The notes below the pieces were generated by a model. The model ran no database searches. It saw only the letters and a program-made list of their open reading frames with translations, and was not told the DNA's origin. Position numbers and translations under genes: made by a program. 64,000 nucleotides of DNA, taken from the NCBI GenBank assembly GCA_002269645.1, contig NIVC01000647.1, forward strand, positions 372,001-436,000, given 5' to 3'. This document shows positions 54,501-60,500 of the stretch, one piece after another. This DNA is from Macrostomum lignano (lineage: Eukaryota). Within the stretch, counting starts at the first letter, position 1. Each line of letters starts with the position of its first letter.

Positions 54501-57500
54501 TAAGAGTAGAGTCTGATCTGTTGTATTTTCAGAGTCCCGGGAGTGGGTGCCAGAAAAAGATTTTGCTGCCGCCGGCTTTGCTGCCGAAAGTGCTCAGTGA
54601 GCTTCATGATGGGGTTGCAGGAGGGCACCTTGGGGTTAGGAAGACACAAGAGAAAGTGAAGGCGAGATACTGGTGGCCGGGGCTGAGTCGTTCCGTGGAA
54701 GAATATTGCCGGAGCTGTGTCCACTGTGCGAAGGCGAAGCCTGGGCGCAGCAACCGGGCGCCTCTGCAGCCAATCTGCTCGGAAGGAGCTTTCCAGAGGA
54801 TCATGAGTGACATTGTCGGGCCGTTGCCCAAGTCCAGAGGTGGCAATCGATTCGTGCTGACAATCCAGGATTCTTTTACTAAGTGGCCGGTGGCTGTGCC
54901 CTTGTCCAATCAGCGAGCCCCGACGGTGGCGCGAGCGATTTTTGATCACTGGATTGCGCACTTTGGTTGTCCTGAATTCCTAGTCACCGATAAGGTCACC
55001 AATTTCGAGTCGGTTTTGATGAAGCAGTTGTGTCGGTTGCTTGCCGTCAAGAAATGCAGAACGTCCTCCTATCACCCGATGGCTGATGGTCAGGCTGAGA
55101 GTTTCAATAAGACATTGAAGTCAATGATCAAGTGCAGGATGAGTGAGTCGGTGGGCGAAGGAGACTGGGAGGATCTGATCCACCCGTCTCTCATGGCGTA
55201 CCGTAGCAGCGTTCACAGAGGCACGGGGTACAACCCGTACTACATGCTGTACGCCAGGGAGATGCGGCTTCCAGTGGACATCGGAACCTTGCCTGAGTCC
55301 ATTCCTGCCAGTGCTCCGGCGTATGTTCAGTCATTAGGTAATAGTCTGGCTGAGGCTCATTCGCAGGTGCGGACCAACCTGCAGCAGTATCAGAGGAAAC
55401 AGAAAGTGCTGTACGACTCAAGGGTGCGAGGCCCGGCCATAGAAGTTGGGGATGCCGTCCTAGAATACTCGCCTGCGCTGCAGGCAGGGGAGGCAGCCAA
55501 GTTCCATTGCAATTGGAAAGGGCCGGCGAAGGTGTTAGAGAAGATATCCGATTTGAATTACCGGGTAAAGCACGCCAATAAGGGAAAGAGCAAAATAGTG
55601 CATTATAATAATTTGCGAAAAGTACCCGAGCGGCCTGAGCAGTTCAGGTTGATGAATAGGCATACGGCAGTGCAGCGCCGGTCGGCGCATCCGCCTGAGC
55701 CGGCAGGGTGCAAACAGGAGCCCGCGGGGCCGGAGACTACAGAGCCGGAACTTGAGGAGGAGGAGGAGGAGTTTTACTCGTACCAGTATGTTGTGCCACC
55801 AGTTGCCGTTGGGCCTCGGCATGGGATAGTAGGGCCGGGAACGCCAGTTGCGCCATGCGCACCGGTGGCTCCAGCGGCGCCAGCCGTGTCTCCGCGCAGA
55901 CTGCGCGAGCGTCGGGGTGTGCCCCCAGCGTATTACGGGAATCCGGTACTGTATCGTTAATTCGCAGTGGGCTCACAAGGCGGTCGTCCTAAATTGATTT
56001 TTAATATGCACTTGTATTAATGCCTCCACGCTGTTGTCTATGGTAGAAAGCCTAAAATAACCTAAAATGAAAAAATGATAAAACCCTAAAGCACAAAAAA
56101 AATCATAAAATGGAACGCATGAAAAGCACATAAAAAACATTAAATGTATTAAAATTACAAAATATGCTAGGCAAGAAGCGTTCTCAATCGTATTGTAAAA
56201 TAAACATGTCATGGGATGGGTCAGGCCAGGGTCACAGTTGCTAGTCCGCAAGGCATAGGTAGTGATTGGGTTTAAATGTCATCATTGCAGGAGGACCATG
56301 TCGTCGCCAGGGACACCGACTGATTTGTATGGCGTGTTAGGCGTGGGTCGGACTGCTAACTCTGCGGAGATTGAGGCAGCGTGTAGTCGTCTGTACTCAA
56401 AGCGGCCCCGCGTCTGTCCTGCCGAGGTAGAATCTCCGGAGTCTCAGCGAGACGTGATGGCGATTTGCGTTTTATCTGACCCAGTTTTTCGGGAAGTGTA
56501 CGATCGGGAGGGAGAGGCAGCGTGTCAAGGGGTGTTAAAGTACGCCTACTTTTTCAATCCTCCCCCTGGCGTTGAGTTGCCCGAGCAGGTCAAGTTAGCT
56601 TTGGCTAGTCTTAAAGGAAGTGTCGCAGGGGAAGCTCCAGTTCACGCGAGGATCCCAGCCGAGTTCTTGGCTCCGGCTGCAGTTGCTGAGTGTAGGCGGC
56701 TGAGGGGTGCGCTGTTGGCGCGGTTGAGGGCTGGAGATAGTGATGGAGCTTGCCTAGTGGTTCAGGAGGTGGCGAGGTTTCTTGATGGGGCTGGTGTGAG
56801 TGTGCCTGAGCAGTTGTCTAGGTTCTTAGCCGTGTCTGTGTCGTTTCTGTGCAATCAGTATGGGCGGAAGAGAGGTTCTGGTGGTGGTTCCGGGAGGTGT
56901 CGGAGGGTCCCACCTTCGGTGCTGCAGGCGGCGTTTGAGTGTGTGTTGTTGGCTGTGCGGGGTTTTGAGCTGTGTGAGTTGGGGGGTCCCTTGTTGGGGA
57001 AGCTCCGGGGTCTGTCTCTCTTAGTGGATCCTGGCCTCGCGCGGCGCCCGGAGGAGGGGAGTGACGGGCCACACCGTTCGCAGACTCCGCTGACGGCCCA
57101 GCGCGACTTGGTGACCGAAGAGTCAACGGGTGTCGATCCTGAGCCAGTACGACCAGCCGACACGGTCCAGGAGGTCTGTCCCCGGGACGACCCGAATCAG
57201 CGCAAGGTGAGCTCGGCTAAGCGGCTCGTCGATGCAAAGGCATACCTAACGAGGCTGGGCCGGTCAATTCAGCCCGAGGACCTTCGTGGCGTGCGTCGAT
57301 GTGTAGCGGCTGTAAACTCGCCGTACTGTCTGCGTCTAGAATGTCCCGTTGTCCGACCACTGCTGCAAGACCGACGGATCGTGTTCGCCCTGGGCCTGAA
57401 GGCCAGTGCTGCACCGTGGTGGCCATCGCTGCGAGACGATGTACGACGATTTCTAGCGGGTAGCTGGCCGCGTGTCGTGGCGGTCGGCGAAGTCGAGCTC

Positions 57501-60500
57501 AATTGGGACGCTGAGAGGTCGCAGCGCCAGGACCAGTTAACGGCGGCGATGGAGCAGTTCTTGCTTGCCAAGGAGTTTAGCCTGCCGGTTTTGTTCCGAG
57601 TTGAAGGCGGCGAACCTGCCTGGGCGGTCGCCCTAGGATTCCTCCGGCAGCCGGAGTTTCAAGCGATGAGCGTCATGCTGGCCGAGGACCTGGACTTGCC
57701 GGAGACCGTCGAGGCCGCGCTGGTGAACGAGTGCCACGGGGTCTTCTTCGAGGTGTCCGCTCGGTGCCGAGGATCCCCGCGAGCGGTCCAACGGGCTAAG
57801 CGTCTCCCGCGGCAGCGCCTGCTGGTGACATCGGCCGCACCGTTTGGTGGAGACCCCAAGGACCCGACAGCCATCAAGTTCGTGCCGGAAGCCCTAGCGG
57901 ACAGTGAGTGTGATCACGGCTACTGGACTCGACTGTTTGCGACCAACTGTAGTAGATTTTTTGGCCGATTGTAGAGTAGAATTGCGTTCTTAAGCCCGTT
58001 TTCAATTTTTGCGTACGCAATAGTTTGTGTCCCGTTTTCATTTTGTCGTTTTTGTTTTTTGTAATGCCGGCGGTATCCACGCGTCGCGTCAAAGTTTTTC
58101 TGTTATTTTTCGGCCGTCGTTTTTTGAATTAACTTTTTTTTAGACTTGCTTGTTCATGCGTTGCTTTTTGCTTGACATCCCCTTTCTCCTCTTCTTTTTC
58201 TTGGAGGGGGAGGATGTTGGGCTGCGCCCTTCCAGTGCTTGTGTACTCGTACTTTACCTTGTTTCCAGTTTTTCATGCCACCCCGCCCCGTCCCCCGTCT
58301 CGCGCCCGGGCCAGGGTTTGTGAGAGGTGTAAGCCTTAACCCTGGCCTAACCCTTTCTGCACCCAGCCCCCGGCCCAACTTCTGTCCAATCTGGGTGCTG
58401 ACCCTACCCCCCTCCCTCTTTGCCCGCCTCACCCTGGGGCTGCTCGTATTGGCTGGCTGGCTGATAAGCTGGCTGGGCCCCAGGGTTTGGCTCGCCGTCT
58501 CCATTCTGCCCCACCCCTTCCCCCTTTTTTGTGTATTATTTAAAGGCTAGCCCTGAGCGGGCTGCGCTCCACGCGCTTCGTTCTTACTGTTTTTTTCGTT
58601 CTTCGGCGTACCTCTGCCCTTTGCGTGCCAATAACTGCTTCGTGCCAATAAACGCTTCGTCAATTCTAACGCTTCGTTAATAACTCGATACATCAAGAAG
58701 AGGTGAGCGCGTGCTTTCTTCTTTCGGGTTGCCGCGTGGGGCCGGATTTGTAGGGACCTGAGACCGGTGAACACTCGCTGATCCCAGGGTGGTCGGTCAG
58801 GCGAACTCTCGCCGAACCGAGAGAGGCAGGGTAGGAATAGCCGGGGTGAGGGCTGGGACAAGACCTACCAGACCACCCCGAGACAGCCGTCAATGCTACA
58901 CACACGAGCCCCAAAAAGGAATGTGGTCGCGCACGAAGTTGAAGCAGGGGTCGTGTGGCGCTCAAACGCATTCACCGCTGAGCTGCTTCGCATCAAAGCT
59001 TCTGCAGTGCTTCTTGGTTTGAAGTTTTGGAGTTAAAAATTCCTAACCAATAGCAATAACACGTGACCAGCCCCCGCACCCACCTGTACAATAGCAATTA
59101 CACGTGACCAGCCCCCGCACCCACCTGTACAATAGCAATAACACGTGACCAGCCCCCGCACCCACCTGTACAATAGCAATAACACGTGACCAGCCCCCGC
59201 ACCCACCTGTACAATAGCAATAACACGTGACCAGCCCCCGCACCCACCTGTACAATAGCAATAACACGTGACCAGCCCCCGCACCCACCTGTACAATAGC
59301 AATAACACGTGACCAGCCCCCGCACCCACCTGTACAATAGCAAATGCTTCGTTGTCCTCGCGCAGACTGGCGCAGCCAACTTTATTCATCACAGGCAAAT
59401 CTTCGCCCTTGTCAATAGGAATACCGGTAGCGTGCACCCAGGTACCTGTGCACAGGTGTTTTAACCGGACAAAACTTGATCTAGGCACCAGATTATCCGG
59501 CCTGGTAACTGACGTCGGGTCCAATTCGAATATTGAGCAGATATCGTGTCCATGCGGCACAAAGACCAGCTGGCAGACACTTCTTGACGGGTCGCCTCTC
59601 AGCTTAGTCCGCATAGGGTCTGGCGTGTCATCTTCATCTAGCTCAGCTGCCAGGTAGTTGCCTGTAGCCAGGTGCTTGAACCGGAACAGGCTCTTCCACA
59701 GGCCCGGGCCGCCGCGGCAGGCGTCGTTCTGAATGACTTCAACTTCCCACAGCGCCTTGGAGCTCGTGGCCGCGGTGGCGCTAGTGCGCAGAGTCTTGCG
59801 CAGGAATACAACCGACTTTTTCTGATACTCGTCGCCAGTGAGGAATTTCTCCTGCTCGGCGTGGAACAGTCGGACAACGTCGCCACTTTTCAGCACTTCC
59901 GGCTTGTTCTCGCGAGACTCCATGAACAGCACCATCTTCCAGCAGGTGTTGCAGTTTACTGAATTCACCTCTTTGCAGCCCGGATTGTCTACCAGATCGT
60001 ACGTGCTGGCGTGCAGCGGCTGCCCAGCATTCACCGGGCAGAGAGTCACCTGGAAATACAGTAGGGACATAATTGGTTCAATTAATTTATATTGCATAAC
60101 TGGTTTACTTGGGAATGTGGCGTTTTTGACAGACAGACAGACAGACAGACAGACACTAAGACAGACACACAGACACACAGACAGACAGACAGACAGACAG
60201 ACAGACAGGCAGACAGACAGAGACAGGCAGACAGACAGACAGACAGACAGACACACACACACAGACAGACAGCCAGAAAGAGACAGACAGACAGACACAA
60301 AGACAGACAGACACAAAGACAGACAGACACAAAGACAGACAGACACAGACAGACAGACAGACACAAAGACAGACAGACACAAAGACAGACACACAGACAG
60401 ACAGACAGACAGACAGACAGACAGACAGACAGACAGAGACAGACAGACAGACAGACAGAGACAGACAGACAGACAGAGACAGACAGACACACACACACAC

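Follow-up and report, generated by a model that had tools for sequence, protein, structure and literature searches.

A clade of Ty3/Gypsy retrotransposons in Macrostomum lignano carries a J-domain accessory gene, extended in one branch by a TatD barrel without canonical metal ligands

The window analyzed here, a 64,000-nucleotide stretch of the Macrostomum lignano genome (contig NIVC01000647.1, positions 372,001 to 436,000), contains a long terminal repeat (LTR) retrotransposon of the Ty3/Gypsy type with a third open reading frame, ORF3, between pol and the polypurine tract (PPT). This copy belongs to a family, here called A, within a clade of related elements of the same genome. The core of ORF3 in the clade is an N-terminal J domain followed by a private five-helix domain; a TatD barrel without canonical metal ligands has been appended in one branch (families A, B, and C), and absence of the J-domain motif HPD is restricted to family A among the families read. 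ORF3 travels with the element and is under purifying selection. We tentatively propose, at slightly less than an even chance, that elements of the clade produce, by way of a spliced RNA, a co-chaperone that directs host Hsp70 onto their own ribonucleoprotein (RNP) or onto a host defense factor, in a series running from an active J plus helical domain through gain of a TatD pseudo-nuclease to loss of HPD. A preliminary description of the window copy had seen a J-domain/TatD fusion with both catalytic signatures erased. That interpretation is partly supported overall, and the object of interest becomes a clade-wide J-domain accessory gene rather than a doubly dead fusion.

ORF3 and its parts in the window copy, with amino acids abbreviated aa, are as follows.

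56298..57974, plus strand: ORF3, 558 aa, with J-like domain, five-helix domain, linker, and degenerate TatD barrel
56322..56504, plus strand: J-like domain, residues 9-69, without HPD
56673..57017, plus strand: five-helix domain, residues 126-240, conserved in the clade, with an Arg-rich loop
57225..57962, plus strand: TatD-type TIM barrel, residues 310-555, without canonical His/Asp metal ligands

As first described, the frame is intact, open without a stop across 558 aa between the end of pol (55960) and the PPT (58203). It had also been described as not an env gene, and this stands: the N terminus is a J domain and there is no clear transmembrane helix, the top 19-residue Kyte-Doolittle window reaching only 1.49; for the signal peptide, likewise described as absent, no dedicated predictor was run. 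Pfam finds DnaJ at residues 9-69 (E 3e-3) and TatD at residues 358-535 (E 9e-5), both under the curated cut-offs, and a PDB sequence search with ORF3 returns J-domain matches (best E 1e-4). The AlphaFold2 model (mean pLDDT 61.5, barrel mostly 70-90) runs from J helices through a bundle of helices and a disordered linker to a TIM barrel, and together with Foldseek it bears out the DnaJ-like N terminus. Both ends of the fusion are as claimed, but a third domain lies between them that had been missed: folded alone, the middle region forms five helices at pLDDT 80. No clear match to it was found by Foldseek, PDB profile, Pfam, or ESM Atlas, and its best VIA-align Z of 8.9 is within the range usual for helical bundles; these failures establish neither a new fold nor the absence of a known one. 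Its Arg-rich loop is present in all four lineages (A, B, C, and E), which suggests RNA binding or nuclear targeting. The J proteins of the clade show no match to the DnaJ substrate-binding region.

Besides the window copy, 19 other family-A loci were read. All 13 of those scanned with both ends resolved show distinct 4-bp target site duplications (TSDs), the 5' and 3' LTRs of family-A copies are mostly >99% identical, and ORF3 is full length in 9 of the 19. A genome search with ORF3 gave at least 60 matches (best 78 of 122 candidates scored) and no identical host gene; the full-length matches that were read adjoin pol and/or an LTR. The ratio of nonsynonymous to synonymous divergence (dN/dS, Nei-Gojobori) between the window copy and L031 is 0.32 for ORF3 (bootstrap 0.16-0.55) and 0.12 for pol; for ORF3 between the sister families B and C, it is about 0.1. 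The idea of a retained accessory ORF, selected and element-borne in many copies, is upheld. Findings named beforehand as fatal to it (no fold match, a lone or neutrally evolving copy, an identical host gene) are the reverse of what was seen: both folds match, copies are many, dN/dS is below 1, and no identical host gene was found in the genome search. Could ORF3 instead be a host gene, transduced not long ago and carried along neutrally? Both of its recognizable domains, J and TatD, are cellular in origin, and the host genome has TATDN1-like and TATDN3-like genes. However, these genes bear introns, have intact motifs, and are distant from ORF3, the ORF3 families are at saturated dS yet keep frame and architecture, and the matches read sit beside pol or LTR; transduction is largely refuted and retains hardly any probability.

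The HPD motif is required for stimulation of Hsp70 by J domains. It is absent from the window copy and from all 19 other family-A copies; the loss is in frame in 18 of the 19 loci, the remaining one being frameshifted earlier. The preliminary description had HPD changed to RPR. The absence of HPD stands, but an ungapped alignment with the sister families places P37-R38-V39 at this position, one residue off RPR and in an uncertain register. The J domains of families B, C, and E have HPD intact (17 of 18 family-E loci and 4 of 4 B/C copies whose J region was read in frame), score 48-62 bits with Pfam DnaJ, above the cut-off, and resemble those of DNAJB12/Sis1 (best PDB E 1e-13). Erasure of both catalytic signatures is accordingly true of family A but not clade-wide, most of the clade having no TatD match either. 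DNAJB13, the top PDB match for the window ORF3, was considered as the source of the HPD-less J domain and rejected, because the sister families keep HPD and match DNAJB12/Sis1 better.

J domains with HPD joined to a private domain are the layout of specialized Hsp70 co-chaperones. The clade core may well be a working Hsp70 co-chaperone, since the sister families keep HPD and most of the clade has J and helical domains without a TatD match. Is the family-A J domain then a relic, with only part of ORF3 mattering while an ancestral function fades? HPD is missing from every in-frame copy, the Pfam DnaJ score falls under the cut-off, the dN/dS interval of the J part spans 1, and the closest relatives of family A have no ORF3 match. 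Yet the J region, 42-44% identical to its counterparts, has no indels relative to family B and preserves the signatures of helices I, III, and IV, whole-ORF dN/dS has an upper bound of 0.55, and an A-type TatD (fragment P0004) persists at 51% identity outside this assembly, so that such decay appears very unlikely.

The C-terminal TatD barrel proved correct. A profile of the region matches 12 solved TatD sequences in the PDB (best E 5e-9), and TatD structures rank first in Foldseek on the AlphaFold2 model (E 2.7e-7, TM 0.70 on target); fold and sequence homology are present, and the canonical two-metal ligand set is not. Aligned against 28 canonical TatDs, the window barrel retains D312 and E398, has K314, Y316, K368, R434, and E463 in the five conserved His columns, and has T511 and A513 in the ETD columns. 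The canonical ligands kept are the GE glutamate only in family A, and this glutamate plus the first His in families B and C; ligand loss is common to A, B, C, and P0004. The statement that only the GE glutamate remains is right for the canonical ligands of the window copy, but new acidic residues, E400 and E463, occupy columns at the barrel mouth. A beta1 remnant, DAH, in B and C points to the HxH group of TatDs as defined in PMC10085689. The four element TatD rows cluster in a quick tree (SH-aLRT 100) on a branch of 3.55 changes per column; in this tree the host rows are single exons, TATDN2 is left out, the careful search is unfinished, and the donor is not placed. The barrel in the A/B/C branch is a probable pseudo-enzyme.

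Might the barrel instead be a rewired, active nuclease? Carboxylates D312, E398, E400, and E463 would bind Mg2+, K368 and R434 would bind phosphate, and the enzyme would trim cDNA or RNA ends. E398 and E463 are invariant across A, B, C, and P0004, and E400 across A, B, and C, and basic residues stand in the beta3 and beta5 His columns. Furthermore, TATDN1 metals are coordinated by Glu112, Asp222, His149, and His174, and the mutants D222A and H174A have little effect on activity, as given in PMC10085689; bdelloid rotifer LTR elements have 3'-5' exonuclease ORF3s with intact motifs, according to PMC5408684. However, other residues stand in place of the beta8 Asp and of every canonical His ligand (bar one in B/C), and the very long branch is as expected once catalysis is lost, which makes rewired catalysis quite unlikely.

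How did these architectures arise? Families B and C are 57-67% identical to A in integrase and about 35% in ORF3, with the same three domains. A search with the family-C J domain exposed many further elements in the genome, among them family E, whose 293-aa ORF3 comprises J domain, acidic linker, and helical domain without TatD, followed by PPT and LTR. It aligns with A across J and helical domains at 99% probability and is full length in 13 of the 18 loci read (of 19). Integrase matches were tabulated with a downstream span of 3.2 kb (131 of 132 counted, one duplicate piece dropped); since the figures count matches in an assembly that is redundant, they are not to be read as copy numbers. A J/helical match lies downstream in 20/20 family-A, 6/11 B/C, 67/74 at 44-56% identity, and 1/17 at <=43% identity, and a TatD match in 18/20, 11/11, 0/74, and 0/17, respectively. 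The status of the nine closest relatives of family A (integrase matches G000:C23, C1405, C10, C952, C272, C4067, C61, C1445, and C3889, listed at 72-79% integrase identity), as of most J-only families, rests on match coordinates and open-frame lengths; a PPT pattern search located no 3' LTR in these nine. The simplest order, by parsimony on identities rather than a rooted tree, would be J plus helical domain first, TatD gained in the A/B/C branch, and HPD lost in A, which would make the window family the most derived member of a larger clade.

The clade is seen with certainty in one genome only. A phmmer search over 1.84 billion representatives gave nine matches, namely three M. lignano gene models, P0004 (51% identical to A-type TatD, with no closer match in this assembly), and five ordinary TatD/DnaJ proteins, and three word-index searches (best 8000 candidates each) added only ordinary TatDs; these protein searches used TatD-branch queries, not the family-E J plus helical core. 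Scans of viral and metagenome contigs found no ORF3 relatives. The public gene models that contain ORF3 carry the Macrostomum lignano label.

Other features of individual families were also observed. Young B copies L059, L060, and L061 have lost acceptor, J, and helical domains (about 7520-8110, element orientation); their pol is open or nearly so, their LTRs are >99% identical, and their flanks are distinct. L054:3124-6121, of family C, is near family B (L060) in reverse transcriptase (RT; dS 0.25) and saturated in integrase and ORF3; with the likeness of B and C LTRs, this mosaic divergence makes recombination between families likely. In L167:233-1297 (minus strand) and L064/L065, a Walker A ORF (GPPGVGKT), resembling a small viral or transposon helicase, interrupts a degenerate ORF3 copy. 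In family E (L169-L187), ORF3 is separated from the PPT by a GC-rich tandem array that varies among copies, and the spacer between pol and ORF3 contains short repeats.

Another question is how ORF3 is expressed. Two features of the window copy bear on it.

50739..50744, plus strand: putative splice donor inside the 5' LTR, first intron base 50739
55961..56290, plus strand: AT-rich spacer, ending in the putative splice acceptor TTGCAG (56285-56290)

It is likely that ORF3 is made from a spliced RNA joining the 5' LTR donor to the acceptor just before the J domain. The acceptor had been placed 7 nucleotides (nt) before the ATG, exactly where it is found. TTGCAG stands just 5' of ORF3 in A, B, C, and E despite differing spacers (16 nt before ORF3 in E, directly before the J frame in B/C), with a chance frequency in these elements of 0.004-0.03 per 25 nt. 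Family A has the donor in 16 and the acceptor in 18 of 19 loci, its leader is free of ATG from the TATA-like site up to the donor, and the UniRef gene model P0005 joins this LTR donor to the ORF3 acceptor. The B/C LTR donor, GTAAG, lies at -207 to -210 from the LTR end; in each of the seven LTRs resolved, its exon closes with A. The first bases after the acceptor are TG, in the J frame, and splicing would thereby create an ATG. No in-frame Met exists upstream of the J domain in family C. In public run data, 20 rows from 7 studies contain the stretch, none recorded as RNA. Nearly all of the element is covered by contigs from four runs presumed to be RNA, with no joint to the acceptor listed, and one of these contigs, of 7.6 kb, spans pol, spacer, and ORF3. 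The contigs count neither way on splicing, because rare forms are lost from them and their source may be DNA. In family A, a pyrimidine tract plus TAG at 51070-51087, immediately 5' of the gag ATG, resembles a second acceptor for the LTR donor; no such site is seen in B or C leaders.

What would an element do with its own J protein? By analogy with known systems, we lean, at just under even probability, toward the core acting as a specialized J-domain co-chaperone on the element RNP and the TatD barrel binding nucleic acid without catalysis. The five-helix domain with its basic loop would engage the element's own RNA or the Gag/Pol complex, and the J domain would make host Hsp70 remodel the bound complex in RNP export, particle assembly, or uncoating. 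The barrel may serve as a single-strand nucleic-acid binding module that sharpens targeting. In family A, the J domain could presumably no longer trigger Hsp70 normally, and ORF3 might act as a nucleic-acid-binding scaffold or lean on host J proteins.

The same architecture is compatible with counter-defense, in which the helical domain would capture a host factor for silencing or restriction, which the J domain would then pass to Hsp70 for disassembly or degradation, with TatD as decoy or RNA-binding add-on; viral J-domain proteins hand factors to Hsp70 in this way. ORF3 diverges faster than integrase between families (J domain 39-49% identity versus 47-62%), as in an arms race, TatD gain and HPD loss are the kind of architecture change expected of an arms-race protein, and the apparent loss of ORF3 from close relatives would agree with a function available in trans. 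No sign of dN/dS >1 appeared in the comparisons made, however, and the Arg-rich loop and TatD indicate nucleic acid, so that we hold counter-defense to be unlikely.

Several observations weigh against the co-chaperone proposal. None of the nine integrase relatives closest to family A (68-80% identity; all 109 candidates scored) has an ORF3 or TatD match downstream, so that ORF3 is seemingly dispensable in cis, and in the three young B copies only the C-terminal 181 aa of TatD are left of it. Among the B and C copies retrieved, none has an unbroken ORF3, and the HPD-plus-TatD protein of these families is therefore pieced together. Within family A, the dN/dS intervals of the single domains both span 1 (J 0-1.9, TatD 0.11-1.3), and the B versus C values of 0.08 (J part) and 0.13 (TatD) rest on a near-saturated dS of about 2; protein-level selection in any case points to no particular function. 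For the spliced route, P0005 is a prediction only, and in family B translation could also start at an in-frame ATG that precedes the acceptor. The conserved acidic barrel residues could form a different active site, and the client of the co-chaperone is a guess.

The remaining features of the element in the window are as follows.

50171..50963, plus strand: 5' LTR, TGTTG...CAACA ends, TATA-like site at 50493, AATAAA at 50603 and 50683
50966..50983, plus strand: primer binding site (PBS)
51088..52067, plus strand: gag with CCHC knuckles, frame broken near 51250 in this copy
52013..52019, plus strand: slippery heptamer GGGAAAC at the gag/pol overlap
51991..55960, plus strand: open pol frame with protease, RT, RNase H, and integrase in Ty3/Gypsy order
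58203..58214, plus strand: PPT
58215..58860, plus strand: 3' LTR, truncated at its 3' end
58861..58972, plus strand: 112-bp exact duplicate of the 5' flank (50059-50170), replacing the LTR end and the normal target duplication

Assignment to Ty3/Gypsy agrees with the preliminary description and follows from TG...CA LTRs, PBS, PPT, TSD, and pol order, the LTR ends and TSD having been read on those family-A copies in which both ends could be resolved. Outside ORF3, the copy in the window is damaged, with a broken gag frame and a shortened 3' LTR, neither remarked on earlier. Its LTRs are 100% identical over 446 nt and 98.6% over the next 287. We take the PBS to be tRNA-His-like. The pol gene lies in the -1 frame relative to gag and is apparently reached by frameshifting. 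The 112-bp host-flank duplication, in place of a 4-bp TSD, is a repair event or an assembly artifact, and an 88-bp tandem duplication (50530-50696), present in the 5' LTR only, doubles the AATAAA signal. The element lies antisense within an intron of a minus-strand gene (exons 43895-48825 and 59033-61772) that, from its translations, we presume to resemble an inositol-trisphosphate receptor; its introns are rich in tandem repeats. Identity with the heat-induced family Mlig-id38 was considered and ruled out, its LTR being about 337 bp and different. No canonical heat shock element occurs in 49001-60000 of the window, and the few matches in L031-L067 fall in pol or flanks.

The usual view is that retrotransposons borrow the chaperones of their host. 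The clade described here, with at least 90 matched copies in a single genome, has a J domain of its own and so offers a way to ask at which step the retroelement cycle depends on Hsp70, or against which host defense Hsp70 could be turned. In this flatworm, which is ready for transgenesis, natural versions of ORF3 that have or lack HPD, and that have or lack TatD, coexist, so that each module is testable with natural sequences. By-products are a probable TatD pseudo-enzyme and a helical domain without a clear match.

Among known systems, the cytosolic J proteins DNAJB12, Sis1, and DNAJB1 share the canonical J domain with HPD seen in B, C, and E, whereas the ORF3 J domain is retrotransposon-encoded and lacks HPD in A. 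Viral J-domain proteins such as polyomavirus T antigens join the J domain to a private domain, as ORF3 does. The literature search, which covered sources other than Repbase, Dfam, GyDB, and subscription journals, turned up no paper describing a retrotransposon ORF with a J domain or a TatD domain; DnaJ, TatD, ORF3, and Hsp40 are absent from the main text of a paper on M. lignano LTR elements (PMC12801592). Group II (HxH) TatDs such as YcfH, YjjV, and TATDN3, as presented in PMC10085689, are like ORF3 in barrel, motif order, GE glutamate, and the beta1 DxH remnant of B/C; they differ in that ORF3 has its second His, its beta3, beta5, and beta6 His, and its beta8 ExD replaced, and in that its barrel is fused behind J and helical domains.

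Bdelloid rotifer LTR retrotransposons carry a DEDDy exonuclease or GDSL ORF3, as reported in PMC5408684. The likeness lies in a non-env, enzyme-derived ORF3 after pol, a domain derived from a 3'-5' exonuclease, and acquisition in sub-branches. The rotifer ORF3 has a DEDDy fold with intact motifs and no significant departure from neutrality, in contrast to the flatworm TatD TIM barrel without intact motifs and under purifying selection, and no J domain is reported for the rotifer elements. The CERV protein of the Caenorhabditis elegans element Cer1 is an accessory protein made from a spliced mRNA and needed to handle unspliced genomic RNA (PMC10309623, abstract); it is the functional model for the co-chaperone proposal by analogy, with no homology claimed, and its abstract mentions no J or TatD domain, unlike ORF3. 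Orchid Ty3/Gypsy elements carry an AlkB m6A demethylase ORF, likewise a cellular domain captured as an extra ORF in a Gypsy lineage, although AlkB is an active enzyme, the hosts are plants, and the main text is without DnaJ or TatD (PMC9289625, main text). Extra ORFs in LTR elements are thus known, and the J-domain/TatD ORF3 of M. lignano appears to be a newly described variant among them.

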